Part shown: piece by piece, positions 1 to 6,516 of the stretch
How positions within the stretch are numbered: position 1 is the stretch's first letter
Layout of the letters: each line of letters begins with the position of its first letter
Origin: a virus
Taxonomy: Duplodnaviria > Heunggongvirae > Uroviricota > Caudoviricetes
IMG/VR virus record: IMGVR_UViG_2778261177_000001
Location: 1-6,516 of that record
DNA length: 6,516 nucleotides
Direction: 5' to 3' (one strand)
The notes under the pieces: generated by a model
Seen by the model: only the letters and a program-made list of their open reading frames with translations
Told to the model about the DNA's origin: nothing
Databases searched by the model: none
Program-made: the position numbers and the translations under genes

Positions 1-418
<418 letters not shown>

Positions 419-441
<23 letters not shown>

Positions 442-637
442 TTCTGATCCTCTTCAAAAGGCTACCTGTTACTGGTCGATTTAAGTCAACCTTTACCGCT
501 GATTCGTGGAACAGATACTCTCTTCCATCCTTAACCGGAGGAGGGAATATCCTGCATTCGCGTACCCATCGACGAACTGTTTCAAGGCTTCTTGGACGTC
601 GCTGGCGTGCGTTCCACTCCTGAAGTGTCAAGTACAT
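419..637 (-). CDS. xis: excisionase Xis (lambda-type)
   Basis: 72-aa ORF MYLTLQEWNARQRRPRSLETVRRWVRECRIFPPPVKDGREYLFHESAVKVDLNRPVTGSLLKRIRNGKKAKS, essentially identical to lambda Xis from memory. SD GGAG lies 8 nt upstream of the ATG. The 3' end overlaps the int start by 23 nt. Confidence 0.92.
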
Positions 638-664
638 CGCAAAGTCTCCGCAATTACACGCAAG

Positions 665-685
665 AAAAAACCGCCATCAGGCGGC
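665..685 (-). terminator. candidate intrinsic terminator between the Cys-rich gene and xis (minus-strand sense)
   Basis: Minus-strand RNA would read CCGCC-UGAU-GGCGG (5-bp all-GC stem, 4-nt loop) followed directly by UUUUUU. The stem is short, so strength is uncertain. Confidence 0.4.
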
Positions 686-727
686 TTGGTGTTCTTTCAG
701 TTCTTCAATTCGAATATTGGTTACGTC

Positions 728-1027
728 TTATTCGATGCGCACTCCTGGTATTTCGCCTTTTGATATTGCTAAGTCATAAATTTGCGCGGCACTATACCCA
801 TCTCGCATCCATGAATCTAAGGCGCGAACAGCCTCGCTACGCTTTTTATCTTCTCTCTCATTTTTGATATCAACGAGGACATCAACGCAATTAAGGCAAA
901 TGTGGATTTTGTCCTTACATTCGATCATGGCGGCTTTGCCATGATTTCCGCCACACAGTGAGCATAAATCTTCAGGGGCTGGCTGGTATTTCTGTAACGT
1001 TAGAGGGTTGAATGTTGAACAGGCCAT
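728..1027 (-). CDS. small Cys-rich putative zinc-ribbon protein, hypothetical; occupies the lambda ea8.5 position, possibly Ea8.5-like
   Basis: ORF 728..1039 in the track. I prefer the ATG at 1027 (MACSTFNPL...) because GGAG at 1034..1037 sits 6 nt upstream, whereas the ATG at 1039 has no SD. Cys spacing is C-x2-C-x11-C-x6-C-x2-C, followed by a helical-looking C-terminal half. Stop is TAA at 728..730. Confidence 0.6.
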   Translation of the reverse strand: MACSTFNPLTLQKYQPAPEDLCSLCGGNHGKAAMIECKDKIHICLNCVDVLVDIKNEREDKKRSEAVRALDSWMRDGYSAAQIYDLAISKGEIPGVRIE

Positions 1028-1037
1028 AATCATCTCC

Positions 1038-1064
1038 ATAAAACAAAACTCGCCGTAGCGAGTT
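1038..1064 (-). terminator. terminator-like hairpin plus U-tract immediately 5' of the Cys-rich gene start (minus-strand sense)
   Basis: Minus-strand RNA AACUCGC-UACG-GCGAGUU (7-bp stem, 4-nt loop) followed by UUGUUUUAU. The U-tract abuts the SD and start codon. Confidence 0.3.
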
Positions 1065-1065
1065 C

Positions 1066-1096
1066 AGATAAAAGAAATCCCCGCGAGTGCGAGGAT
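1066..1096 (-). terminator. candidate intrinsic terminator in the intergenic leader (minus-strand sense)
   Basis: Minus-strand RNA AUCCUCGC-ACUC-GCGGGGAU (8-bp stem including one G-U pair, 4-nt loop) followed by UUUCUUUUAU. Confidence 0.45.
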
Positions 1097-1221
1097 AGTT
1101 ATTCATTGTCGATATTTACATTTATTTCGAATATCTTTACTGGGTAATCGCCAAAGTCATATGTTTTTTATTCTGTTTTATAAGCACTACCAAGTACTGC
1201 TTATTACAAATAAGAAAAGGC

Positions 1222-1253
1222 TGAAAAAATATTTAAGGCCACAACTGTGGCCC
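1222..1253 (-). terminator. candidate intrinsic terminator downstream of the DUF1311-like gene (minus-strand sense)
   Basis: Begins 10 nt after the TAA stop. Minus-strand RNA GGCCAC-AGUU-GUGGCC (6-bp stem) followed by UUAAAUAUUUUUU. The U-run is slightly offset from the stem. Confidence 0.45.
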
Positions 1254-1262
1254 TAAATTTAC

Positions 1263-1961
1263 TTACGGCACTGCGTTAATCAGATTACAAATACCTCTTT
1301 TGGCAGGGTCTGAATTCAACTTCTGAAAATTGGCGTTCAACATAGCCGTGTGTAAGTGATTCTCAACCTCAAAGAATAAGTCGATTTTGCCCTCTTTGGC
1401 TGCCTGTTTCTTCCAAATATTCACTTGGTCATCAGCAATACGACTGGCGCAAGTGAACAAGAACGAACTGCCTCTAGGAATGGATGTCGTGCTGTAATAC
1501 TCACCATCTACTTCTACATATTTAGCTCGGAATGACTCTAAGGTTAGCTCATTGCCGTTCTTGACCGACTTAGCTTCTGCCTTACTTGTTTCTTCCTGCT
1601 CTTCAGAATGTTTCTGCGCCGACGTGGGTATGTCATTGGCCGCTGTTACGCTGACTGAACTCCCCAAACCTTTGAGGCCATTAATTTGGATAAGATAAGC
1701 CAGCTCCAGAGCCTTATTATCAGTGAGTTTTCCACGCATATTTACCCACTGACGTTGAACCATTTTTAGGGTGTCTGCGTTCTCTGGGTTTCCTTTGAGG
1801 GCACTAGAATAGGCAGAGCTAAGCTGTTCGTCTAATTTTGACAGACGTTCGTTATCGCAGATTTTATGTTCGATTGCTGTCGAAGCCTTTTGGCAGTCAA
1901 AGCTGGCTGCAAATGCACCCGGCGATGCCACTAACAATGATGCCAGTAGGATATTTTTCAT
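1263..1961 (-). CDS. secreted DUF1311 / lysozyme-inhibitor LprI-like family protein (moron)
   Basis: Track ORF 1263..1988. I prefer the ATG at 1961 (MKNILLASLLVASPGAFAASFDCQKAST...) because GGAG lies 6 nt upstream and it starts a canonical signal peptide (K, hydrophobic core, AFA-A cleavage-like site). The mature N-terminus FDCQKASTAIEHKICDNERLSKLDEQL...Y...QRQW matches my memory of the DUF1311/LprI N-terminal motif. Stop is TAA at 1263..1265. Confidence 0.75.
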   Translation of the reverse strand: MKNILLASLLVASPGAFAASFDCQKASTAIEHKICDNERLSKLDEQLSSAYSSALKGNPENADTLKMVQRQWVNMRGKLTDNKALELAYLIQINGLKGLGSSVSVTAANDIPTSAQKHSEEQEETSKAEAKSVKNGNELTLESFRAKYVEVDGEYYSTTSIPRGSSFLFTCASRIADDQVNIWKKQAAKEGKIDLFFEVENHLHTAMLNANFQKLNSDPAKRGICNLINAVP

Positions 1962-1984
1962 ATTCACTCCATAAATACAAAAGC

Positions 1985-2000
1985 GCATTACTATAGCACT
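1985..2000 (-). promoter_or_regulatory. candidate extended -10 sigma70 promoter for the DUF1311-like gene
   Basis: Minus strand reads GTGcTATAGT, a TGn-TATAGT extended -10 (plus coordinates 1990..1998), about 30 nt upstream of the ATG at 1961. No convincing -35 hexamer. Confidence 0.35.
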
Positions 2001-2091
2001 TAACCGATCGCTTATCTCGCCCGTTCGTCATTCTTATCTAACCAGAACATGCGACTGCCACAGCACATGTCGAGGATTGCTGCATGTCCAG

Positions 2092-2529
2092 TCACTGGTT
2101 GCCTCCTTTGCGAAGCTGGGCGGCTAACTCATCACATATGTGCGTCAAAGAGCAAAGTTTGATTGATGGGTGTTCGCGCATCATCTCAACCCCCTGCGCC
2201 CGCACTTCAGACAGGAAAGAGTCGGTGGCTGGGGTTTCAACACGGATGCTGTCGCGCAAGATGAAAAATGCATTGAGCATTCCAGTCTCTGGCACTTCAT
2301 CCTGATGCTTCTCATACGCATCAAGAGCCTTCATCATCTCTGCTCCGAATGGTTGAGGGTGCACAGACTTCAGCTCCGCATTCTCCGCCGCCAGCGCCGC
2401 GCACTTGGCCTCCGCTTCAGCAAATTTGCGTACCAGATATTCAGCATTTGTTTCGTTAACCTTTAAATCACATGGGATGCATTTACCTTTCAGAAATCCA
2501 TCCATCTCAATTAGTGTCATTCGTTTCAT
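2092..2529 (-). CDS. hypothetical protein (145 aa; coiled-coil-like central segment, CxxC near N-terminus and CxxxxxC near C-terminus)
   Basis: Track ORF 2092..2547 begins at a GTG. I prefer the ATG at 2529, which overlaps the upstream small-ORF stop as ATGA (translational coupling) and has GGAG 9 nt upstream. Stop is TGA at 2092..2094. Start is ambiguous between 2547 (GTG), 2529 and 2520. Confidence 0.6.
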
Positions 2530-2690
2530 TTCTTCCCACTCCGCCACATCGCATTCAGATATTTGTTTTGATTCACTGACGGAGAAGAATTTCTCTTAAG
2601 CAATTCCTCTCTCGATGGCATTGGCTTTACGCGTTGGCGAATAATCATTTCTGCCGGAAGAATGCCGGGATTGTATGCAAGTCCTCTCAT
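2526..2690 (-). CDS. small hypothetical protein (54 aa), middle gene of a coupled three-gene cassette
   Basis: ATG at 2690 is preceded by GAGGA 7 nt upstream, directly after the TGA stop of the 98-aa gene. Its stop overlaps the next gene start (ATGA). This is the 3' part of track ORF 2526..2843, whose full length starts at TTG and overlaps the 98-aa gene. Confidence 0.4.
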
Positions 2691-2700
2691 GGTAAATTCC

Positions 2701-2997
2701 TCAGTCATTACTGATAGCGCCATAGCGTGAGCGGTAATTACGCAGGCGCGGGTCGATATATTCAGGGAAGTGGGTATATGTGGCTTTGCGGAATGGTCGG
2801 ATTGATGTCTGGTAAATTCGCTCGCGTTCTTCTTTCTCTGCAAGCCATATACAGTGGCGAAATTCCTTTTCCTCTTTCGTTTCCTGCGGTAGAGACATTA
2901 TCCGGTCGTAGTTTTTCCTGAATTTATCCAGCACCTCCGATACGGAATTGCCGGAACAGCGGCGCGCGTCATCCGCACCATACAGAGGCGCTGGCAT
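2701..2997 (-). CDS. hypothetical protein (98 aa, basic, Arg/Lys/Glu-rich)
   Basis: ATG at 2997 with strong SD AGGAGA 5 nt upstream (minus strand aatcAGGAGAaaatcATG). Stop is TGA at 2701..2703. No family recognised. Confidence 0.65.
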
Positions 2998-3054
2998 GAT
3001 TTTCTCCTGATTAAATTGCGTGAATAGCGTGACGAGGGAAGGGGAGAGTTACTG

Positions 3055-5913
3055 GTGCAAAGGGTATACCCGAACACGGCACTGGTTGGCGTGCAGGTGG
3101 ACTCGGAGCAGTTCGGCAGCCAGCAGGTGAGCCGTAATTATCATCTTCGCGGGCGCATTCTGCAGGTGCCGTCGAACTATAACCCGCAGACGCGGCAATA
3201 CAGCGGTATCTGGGACGGAACGTTTAAGCCAGCATACAGCAACAACATGGCCTGGTGTCTGTGGGATATGCTGACCCATCCGCGCTACGGCATGGGGAAA
3301 CGTCTCGGTGCGGCGGATGTGGATAAATGGGCGCTGTATGTCATCGGCCAGAATTGCGACCAGTCGGTGCCGGACGGCTTTGGCGGTACGGAGCCGCGCA
3401 TCACCTGTAACGCTTACCTGACCACACAACGTAAGGCGTGGGATGTGCTCAGTGATTTCTGCTCGGCGATGCGCTGTATGCCGGTATGGAACGGGCAGAC
3501 GCTGACGTTCGTGCAGGACCGACCGTCGGATAAGGTGTGGACCTATAACCGCAGTAATGTGGTGATGCCGGATGATGGCGCGCCGTTCCGCTACAGCTTC
3601 AGCGCCCTGAAGGACCGCCATAATGCCGTTGAGGTGAACTGGATTGACCCGAATAACGGCTGGGAGACGGCGACAGAGCTTGTGGAGGACACGCAGGCCA
3701 TTGCCCGTTACGGTCGTAACGTCACGAAGATGGATGCTTTTGGCTGTACCAGCCGGGGGCAGGCACACCGCGCCGGGCTGTGGCTGATTAAAACAGAACT
3801 GCTGGAAACGCAGACCGTGGACTTCAGCGTGGGTGCCGAAGGGCTTCGCCATGTGCCGGGTGATGTTATTGAAATCTGCGATGATGATTATGCGGGTATC
3901 AGCACCGGCGGGCGTGTGCTGGCGGTGAACAGCCAGACCCGGACGCTGACGCTCGACCGTGAAATCACGCTGCCATCCTCCGGCACCACGCTGATAAGCC
4001 TGGTTGACGGGCAGGGGAATCCGGTCAGCGTGGAGGTTCAGTCCGTCACCGACGGCGTGAAGGTGAAAGTGAGCCGGGTTCCTGACGGCGTTGCAGAATA
4101 CAGCGTGTGGGGGCTGAAGCTGCCGACGCTGCGCCAGCGCCTGTTCCGCTGCGTGAGTATCCGTGAGAACGACGACGGCACGTATGCCATCACCGCCGTG
4201 CAGCATGTACCGGAAAAAGAGGCCATCGTGGATAACGGGGCGCACTTTGACGGCGACCAGAGCGGCACGGTAAATGGTGTCACGCCGCCAGCGGTGCAGC
4301 ACCTGACCGCAGAAGTCACCGCAGACAGCGGGGAATATCAGGTGCTGGCGCGCTGGGACACGCCGAAGGTGGTGAAGGGGGTGAGCTTTATGCTTCGCCT
4401 GACCGTGGCAGCGGATGACGGTAGTGAGCGGCTGGTCAGCACGGCCCGGACGGCGGAAACCACATACCGTTTCACACAACTGGCGCTGGGGAACTACACG
4501 CTGACGGTCCGGGCGGTAAATGCGTGGGGGCAGCAGGGCGATCCGGCGTCGGTATCGTTCCGGATTGCCGCACCGGCAGCACCGTCGAGGATTGAGCTGA
4601 CGCCGGGCTATTTTCAGATAACCGCCACGCCGCATCTTGCGGTTTATGATCCGACGGTACAGTTTGAGTTCTGGTTCTCGGAAAAGCGGATTGCGGATAT
4701 CAGGCAGGTTGAAACCACAGCCCGCTATCTTGGCATGGCGCTGTACTGGATAGCTGCCAGTATCAATATCAGGCCGGGCCATAATTATTATTTTTACGTT
4801 CGCAGTGTGAACACCGTTGGCAAATCGGCATTTGTGGAGGCTGTTGGCCAGCCGAGTGATGATGCATCCGGCTATCTGGATTTTTTCAAAGGCGAGATAG
4901 GGAAAACCCATCTGGCTCAGGAGTTGTGGACGCAGATTGATAACGGTCAGCTTGCGCCTGACCTGGCTGAAATCAGGACGTCCATTACGGGTGTCAGCAA
5001 TGAAATCACGCAGACCGTCAATAAGAAACTGGAAGACCAGAGCGCGGCAATCCAGCAGATACAGAAGGTTCAGGTTGATACAAATAATAACCTGAACAGC
5101 ATGTGGGCTGTGAAGCTGCAGCAGATGCAGGACGGACGCCTTTATATCGCGGGTATTGGTGCCGGTATTGAGAATACTCCTGACGGTATGCAGAGTCAGG
5201 TGCTGCTGGCGGCGGACAGGATTGCGATGATTAATCCTGCGAATGGCAACACAAAGCCGATGTTTGTTGGTCAGGGTGATCAGATATTCATGAACGAAGT
5301 GTTCCTGAAGTATCTGACGGCTCCCACCATTACCAGCGGCGGTAATCCTCCGGCATTTTCCCTGACACCGGACGGGCGGCTGACGGCGAAAAATGCCGAT
5401 ATCAGCGGTAACGTGAATGCGAACTCCGGGACGCTCAACAACGTCACGATTAACGAGAACTGTCAGATTAAGGGGAAACTGTCCGCCAACCAGATTGAGG
5501 GCGATATTGTCAAAACAGTGGGTAAGGCTTTCCCGCGGGACTCCCGGGCACCGGAGCGGTGGCCATCAGGAACCATTACCGTCAGGATTTATGACGATCA
5601 GCCTTTTGACCGGCAGATTGTTATTCCAGCGGTGGCTTTCAGCGGTGCCAGACATGAGCGGGAGAATAGCGATACTTATTCGTCATGCCGCCTGATAGTG
5701 AAGAAAAACGGGGCTGAAATTTATAACCGAACGGCTCTGGATAATACGCTGATATACACGGGTGTTATTGATATGCCTGCAGGCAGTGGCGTAATGACAC
5801 TGGAGTTTTCTGTATCAGCATGGTGGGTAAATGACTGGTATCCCACAGCAAGTATCAGCGATTTGCTGGTTGTTGTGATGAAGAAAGCCACTGCAGGCAT
5901 CACGATTAGCTGA
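3055..5913 (+). CDS. J: host specificity / central tail fibre protein J, 5'-truncated (lacks about 180 N-terminal residues; probable pseudogene or remnant)
   Basis: 952-codon frame. From about 3064 ([69 protein letters not shown]...) it matches lambda J from around residue 183 to the C-terminus, as I recall it. An in-frame TAG at 3025..3027 and the divergent gene starting at 2997 leave no room for the J N-terminus. Track start 3055 is a GTG with GGAG about 8 nt upstream. Stop is TGA at 5911..5913. Confidence 0.88.
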
Positions 5914-5931
5914 ATTTTATAACCCAGATAC

Positions 5932-5959
5932 GGGCGCCAGAAATGGCGCCTTTTTTATT
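5932..5959 (+). terminator. rho-independent terminator downstream of J
   Basis: GGCGCC-AGAAAU-GGCGCC (6-bp GC-rich stem, 6-nt loop) followed by UUUUUUAUU, 19 nt after the J stop. Confidence 0.7.
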
Positions 5960-5980
5960 GCAGAAAAGCGAGAGGTAATT

Positions 5981-6516
5981 ATGCGTAAAGTTTGTGCAGC
6001 CATTTTGTCCGCAGCCATCTGTCTGGCCGTATCCGGTGCGCCTTCATGGGCGTCTGAGCAGCAGGCCACACTGAGCGCAGGGTATCTTCATGCCCGTACG
6101 AACGCTCCCGGCAGCGATAATCTGAACGGGATTAACGTGAAATACCGTTATGAGTTTACGGACACGCTGGGGCTGATTACGTCCTTCAGTTATGCCAATG
6201 CTGAAGATGAGCAAAAAACGCATTACAGCGATACCCGCTGGCATGAGGATTCCGTGCGTAACCGCTGGTTCAGCGTGATGGCGGGACCGTCTGTGCGCGT
6301 GAATGAATGGTTCAGCGCGTATGCGATGGCGGGTGTGGCTTACAGCCGTGTGTCGACTTTCTCCGGGGATTATCTCCGCGTAACTGACAACAAGGGGAAA
6401 ACGCATGATGTGCTGACCGGAAGTGATGACGGTCGCCACAGCAACACGTCTCTGGCGTGGTGGGCTGGCGTGCAGTTTAACCCGACCGAATCCGTGGCCA
6501 TTGATATTGCTTATGA
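5981..6516 (+). CDS. lom: outer membrane protein Lom (Ail/Lom family beta-barrel), 5' portion; continues beyond window end
   Basis: ATG at 5981 with SD AGAGG 5 nt upstream. Translation MRKVCAAILSAAICLAVSGAPSWASEQQATLSAGYLHARTNAPGSDNLNGINVKYRYEFTDTLGL... closely matches lambda Lom including the signal peptide. Open to the window end, so absent from the ORF track. Confidence 0.9.
   Translation, partial: MRKVCAAILSAAICLAVSGAPSWASEQQATLSAGYLHARTNAPGSDNLNGINVKYRYEFTDTLGLITSFSYANAEDEQKTHYSDTRWHEDSVRNRWFSVMAGPSVRVNEWFSAYAMAGVAYSRVSTFSGDYLRVTDNKGKTHDVLTGSDDGRHSNTSLAWWAGVQFNPTESVAIDIAY

Follow-up and report, generated by a model that had tools for sequence, protein, structure and literature searches.

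The window analysed here is the whole of a 6,516-bp draft-assembly contig (NLOX01000049.1), and the block under study consists of three intact minus-strand open reading frames adjoining the 3' part of a tail-tip gene, J (Table 1). Direct reading of the sequence confirmed the tight packing, the Shine-Dalgarno sites and the ATGA overlap that had been described for these genes in the initial annotation. The AGGAG sequence of abc2 (3008-3004) lies 6 nt ahead of its ATG and is identical in the intact prophage L004, while the DUF2737 gene is preceded by GAGGA at 2702-2698, which shares bases with the TGA of abc2 and is separated from the ATG by 7 nt. The ATG of the 145-aa gene overlaps the DUF2737 stop codon as ATGA (2529-2526). 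A longer form of the latter gene, starting at GTG at 2547, is possible; the ATGA start is the one used in HK97 and P22 and also in the contig's public annotation, which calls the same three genes. The 4-nt overlap and the Shine-Dalgarno sequence placed at a stop codon suggest that the trio is translationally coupled.

Table 1. Positions of the genes, gene remnants and signals in and around the block.
Feature	Positions	Strand	Basis
Class I SAM-dependent methyltransferase N-terminus, 27-codon remnant	2012-2095	-	tblastn
EaE / ead-Ea22-like mosaic gene, 145 aa	2092-2529	-	Homologue matches; start overlaps DUF2737 stop
DUF2737 gene, 54 aa; homologue of P22 orf56 (gp33), HK97 gp38 and HK620 hkaI	2526-2690	-	PF10930, phrog_1117
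abc2, anti-RecBCD protein 2, 98 aa, intact	2701-2997	-	Pfam, PHROG, PDB and P22 matches
abc2 Shine-Dalgarno sequence AGGAG, inside the native 13-nt ssb-abc2 intergenic region (2998-3010)	3004-3008	-	Direct reading
3' remnant of phage ssb, last 19 codons and stop	3011-3068	-	Matches end of 168-aa SSB of L004
Deletion junction between early-left operon and J, crossover dinucleotide TA	3067-3068		Parent identity mapping
Tail-tip gene J, 3' part from about codon 212	3069-5913	+	95-96% identity to gpJ

The ratio pN/pS was approximately 0.2 for each of the three genes, as determined against 75-83 distinct phage homologues in comparisons that are not independent of one another, which indicates that all three are real genes under purifying selection. 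Other sequence elements were also searched for. No Rfam family reached its gathering score anywhere in the window, and the window contains no Chi site, a count that is uninformative at such a length.

None of the three products had been recognized in the initial annotation as a known protein or domain family, a statement that had to be revised for every one of them. The 98-aa protein matched the Pfam family PF11043 (Anti-RecBCD_p2) with 203.6 bits against a cut-off of 25 (E = 4e-61), and the alignment covered the full length of both, placing residues 1-98 on positions 1-97 of the 97-position profile. The same protein matched phrog_656, annotated 'abc2 anti-RecBCD' (E = 2e-56), and P22 Abc2 as present in chain A of PDB entry 8B1T (E = 2e-55) and also in 8B1U. 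In a tblastn comparison, P22 abc2 was 91.8% identical to the Abc2 of the window, and Abc2 proteins 100% identical to the latter are encoded in 24 IMG/VR viral contigs or loci and in phage HZ41.

Structural analysis of P22 Abc2 has shown that it binds the Chi-recognition ('inactivated helicase') domains of RecC, near the proposed exit channel for recombinogenic single-stranded DNA, that its RecC-binding helical region comprises residues 3-66, and that its Pro68 sits in the active site of the host PpiB protein (PMC9836394). This binding to RecBCD was published without DUF2737 or EaE partners (PMC9836394), and Abc2 has elsewhere been summarized as a blocker of activation at Chi (PMC12315714). Within residues 1-66, the Abc2 of the window differs from that of P22 by only three substitutions (P11A, L32R and A65S), and Pro68, the proposed PpiB site, is present. 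Sequence comparison identifies gene 1 as Abc2, a RecBCD hijacker of the P22 type with a structurally characterized homologue, and its identity of approximately 92% to P22 Abc2 suggests that the product of the window would likewise bind RecC and modify RecBCD. The setting of the gene is that of an early-left Rec module, with the order SSAP-SSB-Abc2 in intact relatives, of which the window keeps only the last 19 codons of ssb; the combination of SAP, SSB and Abc2 has been termed the 'HK75-type' Rec module (PMC12315714). An anti-defence function had been among those suggested for the block, and this was borne out for gene 1, since Abc2 acts on RecBCD; a search with the PADLOC-DB defence models returned nothing for genes 2 and 3, and for Abc2 only a chance-level score of 11.8 bits.

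The 54-aa product of gene 2 matched the Pfam family PF10930 with 102.7 bits (cut-off 25, E = 1e-29), residues 1-52 aligning with positions 1-52 of the 53-position profile, and it also matched phrog_1117. Its identity to the product of P22 orf56 was 74% (E = 1e-30), and at residue 36 it carries a serine in place of a phenylalanine that is kept in at least 90% of the aligned relatives. By these sequence criteria, gene 2 is a member of the DUF2737 family of the orf56 type. The structural model of this protein was of low confidence (pLDDT 63, pTM 0.23) and gave no informative fold match.

For the 145-aa product of gene 3, no Pfam or NCBIfam model was matched, and its PHROG matches (phrog_614, phrog_492, phrog_368 and phrog_583) are all of unknown function. 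The protein has at least 7,793 homologues at E ≤ 1e-3, mostly in prophages of E. coli and Salmonella, with names such as hypothetical protein, 'Eae protein' and 'ead/Ea22-like family protein'. Different parts of the protein have different closest relatives. HK97 gp37 and the EaE protein of HF4s, the latter with 74% identity, resemble it in the N-terminal and central parts. Residues 100-145 share 95.7% identity with the C-terminus of ev099 gp36 ('ead/Ea22-like family protein'), a protein that joins the N-terminus of lambda Ea22 to the C-terminus of gene 3, and P22 EaE is similar across 82 residues in the centre (E = 7e-10). These matches indicate that gene 3 is a recombining mosaic of the EaE / ead-Ea22-like family, the C-terminus of which is swapped freely. 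The possibility that gene 3 is a true homologue of lambda Ea22 was considered and rejected, as BLASTP gave E = 0.19 at 19% identity and comparisons by PDB sequence, profile and Foldseek yielded nothing significant; because no significant direct match to lambda Ea22 was obtained, gene 3 was placed only in the wider EaE/Ea22-like mosaic family.

A coiled-coil-like centre and two cysteine pairs had been noticed in gene 3. The AlphaFold2 model of the protein is all-alpha, with a predicted helix of 31 residues at positions 26-56, a mean pLDDT of 69 and a pTM of 0.34, and relatives of the protein carry a 28-residue (4-heptad) insertion within this predicted helix, together a hint of a coiled coil. 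By phmmer, profile and Foldseek searches, no significant PDB match was obtained, including to the C-terminal domain of lambda Ea22. The cysteine pairs are present (C17-x2-C20 and C126-x5-C132), but the suggestion of metal binding attached to them does not hold: of the 120 closest homologues, 11 retain Cys20 (82 have Arg and 25 have Ser), 19 retain Cys126 and 27 retain Cys132. A Cys4 zinc site was therefore rejected, the pairs being lineage-specific, and a metal site in gene 3 is unlikely.

In lambda Ea22, a coiled coil links a short N-terminal domain to a variable C-terminal domain of mixed alpha/beta structure; the protein is tetrameric and promotes lysogeny (PMC10834534, PMC7093339). By analogy, gene 3 may encode a helical scaffold that oligomerizes, can exchange its C-terminal domain and acts like lambda Ea22, a possibility supported by the 31-residue predicted helix and the 28-residue length polymorphism. 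No functional study of DUF2737, EaE or 'Ea22-like' proteins was found in the literature searched; the DUF2737 and EaE-like proteins are probably non-enzymatic accessory proteins, and the roles proposed for them are guesses. Homology to a characterized protein was thus found for one of the three products, that of gene 1.

The trio recurs in hundreds of enteric lambdoid phages, in which gene order and overlap are unchanged and the three genes again lie distally in the early-left (pL) operon. The counterpart in P22 is abc2 (gp34)-orf56 (gp33)-eaE (gp32), and that in HK97 is gp39 (Abc2)-gp38-gp37, likewise with a 4-nt overlap. HF4s has the same arrangement, and in HK620 hkaJ is annotated as abc2 and a DUF2737 match lies directly downstream over hkaI/hkaH. 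The initial annotation regarded the block as the strongest candidate in the window for an undescribed system, which is contradicted by its correspondence to these known gene sets and by its position at the end of a longer operon. Eight contigs that encode an identical 145-aa protein were examined, and the full-length ones carry the intact arrangement, in which the order is N…cIII-kil-Rad52-like SSAP-SSB-Abc2-DUF2737-145aa-LprI-like-55aa-xis-int. Over the aligned stretch, the window and the intact prophage L004 show 97% DNA identity overall; genes 2 and 3 are the same in both, and abc2 differs by five substitutions.

Downstream of gene 3, a short methyltransferase remnant was identified, the GTG of which overlaps the gene 3 stop codon and which falls within the 130 nt that natively precede the LprI-like gene. 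Along 21 aa it has 85.7% identity to the methyltransferase of a Klebsiella phage (tblastn, E = 1e-5); it matches many other phage DNA methyltransferases and is also present in the intact prophage L004. This remnant plays no part in the function of the trio.

Whether the three genes form a functional unit was assessed from their neighbourhoods in other genomes, and the conservation of the trio proved to depend on the relatives considered. Among viral loci anchored on Abc2, DUF2737 was located at most 304 nt downstream in 78 of 78 loci, immediately adjacent in 58 and with one extra small gene between in 20, and Abc2 was immediately upstream in all 77 of the loci anchored on DUF2737. Of 151 loci, 125 had an EaE-type N-terminus directly after DUF2737. 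With matches required to span at least 80% of the protein, Abc2 and DUF2737 were found in nearly equal numbers of phage records (225 and 223, respectively), and in Klebsiella phage phiKp_30 the pair is adjacent though its Abc2 is only 33% identical. However, when the divergent, phiKp_30-type DUF2737 was used as the anchor, an Abc2-like gene was found upstream in only 5 of 24 loci, and nine different, unrelated gene families fill the upstream position among these loci. Obligate pairing of Abc2 and DUF2737 was accordingly rejected, as it holds among close relatives and is broken in divergent loci. In addition, the C-terminal core of DUF2737, which corresponds to phrog_4684, occurs in several hundred records of virulent Salmonella and E. 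coli phages, including kagunaviruses, whereas Abc2 itself matched only 232 records in the same search. A pairing of DUF2737 with another RecBCD inhibitor in virulent phages was also considered, but the label 'host nuclease inhibitor' in phage EC3-1 was unsupported by PHROGs or Pfam.

A module boundary that is stable among the enteric lambdoid phages accounts for the adjacency of these genes better than an obligate machine of three parts would. Alternatively, DUF2737, possibly together with the EaE-like protein, might be a dedicated helper of Abc2, either bridging the RecBCD-Abc2 complex to the phage recombinase or SSB, or masking the hijack from host sensors. Such a role would explain the adjacency of Abc2 and DUF2737 both in nearly all enteric lambdoid phages with Abc2 and in phiKp_30, but we regard it as unlikely.

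The block had been placed next to a deletion junction, and this junction was mapped by comparison with the two parental sequences. Identity to the early-left parent (L004) reaches window position 3068 and identity to intact J begins at 3067; the exact shared bases at the join are TA, and the similarity across 3055-3068 is patchy (10 of 14 positions). On the early-left side, the translation of the ssb remnant is identical to the end of the L004 SSB. The interval described in the initial annotation as 58 bp between the cassette and J contains no sigma-70-like site, as had been stated, but it is not a spacer, being made up of the 13-nt intergenic region and the last 19 ssb codons. On the other side, the J fragment shares its identity with gpJ of many E. 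coli genomes, and its product carries the Pfam domains Phage-tail_3, Ig_J and Phage_Tail_Tip. The int, xis and ea genes are directed leftward and J rightward, a layout that fits a simple internal deletion of a prophage.

Such a deletion, joining the 3' end of ssb to approximately codon 212 of J, is much more likely than a chimera, because a shared 2 bp is too short to mislead an assembler. It would have taken out the whole interval that starts in ssb and holds the immunity, replication, lysis and head genes and most of the tail genes; pL, N, the repressor and the recombinase would have been lost with it. If the juxtaposition with J were instead an assembly artefact, the cassette would really belong to an intact prophage and follow ssb and the recombinase gene there. 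Flanking sequence gives the deletion no corroboration, since the window is a whole draft contig, none of 5,426 complete E. coli genomes joins the two halves, and the exact junction 53-mer is absent from the GTDB representative genomes. On the other hand, the TA dinucleotide and patchy similarity that the parents share at the join are far below the k-mers on which assemblers mis-join and are typical of illegitimate recombination, and the contig was recorded for two samples. An artefact is therefore considered very unlikely.

With regard to expression, the initial annotation saw no obvious promoter near the block, in agreement with our scan of both strands at 1900-3600, which returned no sigma-70-like site against 2.0 expected by chance. 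The whole window contained three such sites against 6.3 expected from shuffled sequence. The consensus promoter scan is crude, and the block could still be expressed by read-through or by non-canonical antisense transcription from J. Most likely, however, the trio is a silent, transcriptionally stranded remnant because pL and N are gone, and its open reading frames would be intact because the deletion is probably recent.

A different outcome of the same deletion would be domestication of the cassette, in which a fortuitous promoter in the antisense strand of J drives the three genes and their products modulate host RecBCD or recombination to the benefit of the bacterium. The three open reading frames are intact, as this would demand, the identical Abc2 recurs in the IMG/VR contigs and HZ41, and weak promoter-like matches are present on the minus strand inside J, at 4811-4784 (10 of 12 positions matching) and at 5768-5741. 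Nevertheless, promoter-like matches in the window are fewer than expected by chance and none lies within 1.7 kb upstream of the block, the identity to intact prophages fits a deletion too recent for decay, so that intact reading frames in themselves say nothing on selection, and the junction is known from one contig recorded for the two samples and from no complete genome. There is, accordingly, little probability that the cassette has been domesticated.

In conclusion, the block is the known abc2-orf56-eaE gene set, which lies far from the promoter at the end of the pL operon in a P22/HK97/HK75-type prophage and is here stranded by a deletion, a reading to which we assign a probability of about 0.9. 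The block is already known and ordinary, rather than an undescribed system, and only Abc2 in it has a known function. A very unlikely reading is that the trio is an undescribed, self-contained three-component system of an anti-defence, exclusion or toxin-like kind whose parts cooperate: the tight Abc2-DUF2737 linkage in enteric lambdoid phages, the near-equal record numbers, the adjacency in phiKp_30 and the frequent EaE-type N-terminus after DUF2737 would fit such a system, but gene 1 is characterized and its RecBCD binding was published without the other two proteins, the three genes close a longer operon and do not form a unit with a promoter of its own, Abc2-like genes are mostly replaced by other families upstream of divergent DUF2737 genes, the DUF2737 core is widespread in virulent phages, gene 3 exchanges its C-terminus freely, and no PADLOC model was matched.

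In an intact phage, the trio would be expressed as delayed-early genes, transcribed from pL under N antitermination right after the SSAP and SSB genes, and the 4-nt overlap and the Shine-Dalgarno sequence at the stop codon would let ribosomes move from gene to gene. Abc2 would then re-programme RecBCD rather than switch it off, so that Chi/RecA-dependent processing would be blunted and resected DNA would be open to the phage recombinase. The EaE-like protein may act like lambda Ea22, tipping the outcome of infection toward lysogeny. In the window, the illegitimate deletion between the 3' end of ssb and J would have left three intact open reading frames that are likely transcriptionally stranded and inert.

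The discovery value of the locus is small, as it represents a textbook piece of a P22/HK97-type genome and its lead gene product has been solved on its target. Its practical value lies in annotation, namely of a defective prophage that retains an intact gene for a RecBCD hijacker but lacks the promoter, the recombinase partners and most of the phage. DUF2737/orf56 and EaE are very common small phage genes, located beside Abc2 in hundreds of genomes.

Comparison with known systems places the block closest to those of HK97 and P22. HK97 has the same trio, with the ATGA overlap between gp38 and gp37, and approximately 94% DNA identity over the matched parts. The N-terminus of HK97 gp37 is nearly identical to that of gene 3, but gp37 is 176 aa long, its helical centre is longer, it differs from gene 3 in the middle and C-terminal segment, and it is directly followed by xis/int, whereas LprI-like and zinc-ribbon-like genes intervene in the window. 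P22 shares Abc2 and orf56 at the identities given above and an EaE protein related over its central region, but its EaE N- and C-terminal modules are unlike those of gene 3, its orf56 and eaE overlap by 13 nt rather than 4 nt, and abc1 and erf are located upstream in place of the SSB and Rad52-like SSAP genes of the intact relatives of the window; this upstream part of the operon is present in P22 and deleted in the window.

Lambda Ea22 occupies the same neighbourhood as gene 3, between the recombination genes and xis, is of similar size, and has the short N-terminal part, helical centre and variable C-terminal domain that are predicted in general outline for gene 3. The two are linked through mosaic intermediates such as ev099 gp36, although they show no significant direct similarity and the alpha/beta C-terminal domain of the lambda protein differs from the all-alpha model of gene 3. 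Lambda Gam and T7 gp5.9 target RecBCD, as does Abc2, but their sequences are unrelated to it; these inhibitors stop DNA binding and inhibit the enzyme outright, whereas Abc2 binds RecC and leaves the helicase activity largely intact.

Immediately downstream of the EaE-like gene (gene 3), a 27-codon ORF was identified whose GTG start codon overlaps the gene 3 stop codon, and whose product shares 85.7% identity over 21 amino acids with a Klebsiella phage methyltransferase. The ORF is what remains of a class I SAM-dependent (DNA) methyltransferase, namely its SAM-motif-I-like N-terminal part. Because the same remnant is found not only in the window but also in the intact prophage relative L004 and in phage ev099, whose ead/Ea22-like protein has the C-terminus of gene 3, it marks the scar left by an older deletion in the stretch separating the EaE-like from the LprI-like gene.

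The latter gene, located in the ea region, encodes a member of the LprI family (lysozyme inhibitor, DUF1311-type) that looks to be secreted. It is shared by the window and phage ev099 and is also present in Salmonella phage SSU5 (84% DNA identity). A hairpin resembling a terminator lies downstream of it, at 1258-1231, and the gene looks like moron-type cargo. Between this gene and xis lies a 99/103-aa gene, matching a PHROG of unknown function, with CxxC…CxxC spacing and a similarity to the ClpX C4 zinc finger that is weak and below threshold. At the DNA level, this gene shares 97% identity with 933W/Stx-phage sequence. Since intact relatives carrying the abc2 block (abc2, the DUF2737 gene and gene 3) have a 55-aa gene in this position instead, the region is another mosaic joint.

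The entire window (1-6516) corresponds to contig NLOX01000049.1 of the draft assembly GCA_002230545.1. This contig is cut within int at one end and within a lom-like gene at the other, and the evidence for the deletion joining ssb to J therefore comes from within this one draft contig, the flanks of the prophage lying outside it. The ssb/J junction was not found among 5,426 complete E. coli genomes.

In the window, the DUF2737 protein carries Ser at residue 36, whereas this residue is Phe in at least 90% of aligned relatives, so that their motif RNSFPSVN becomes RNSSPSVN. Because intact L004 has the same DNA at this residue, Ser36 is a lineage variant and not a product of decay following the deletion.

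In distant phages, the DUF2737 gene overlaps the start of the next gene by 4 nt (ATGA or GTGA). The downstream genes are unrelated: that of EC3-1 is NinZ-like, and Klebsiella phage phiKp_30 has a 69-aa ORF there. DUF2737 genes generally seem to be closely coupled to a variable downstream partner.

Positions of the features in the window and in related loci
Feature	Position	Strand	Match or comparison
LprI-family gene, 232/241 aa	1263-1988	(-)	Pfam PF07007 E 2e-5; phrog_4675
27-codon ORF, methyltransferase N-terminal remnant	2012-2095	(-)	similarity to phage methyltransferase
99/103-aa gene, between LprI-like gene and xis	728-1039	(-)	phrog_3680
DUF2737 protein residue 36 (Ser36)	2583-2585	(-)	aligned relatives
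DUF2737 and downstream gene in distant phages	L175 2441-2769; L176 2501-2874		4-nt overlap
SSB gene, 5' of abc2	window 3011-3068; L004 7013-7519	(-) in window	intact relatives

In the SSB encoded before abc2 in intact relatives, the canonical acidic tip DDDIPF is not terminal and is followed by 15 more residues. This extension might alter partner binding by the phage SSB, because the acidic tip of bacterial SSBs must normally be C-terminal for the binding of partner proteins.
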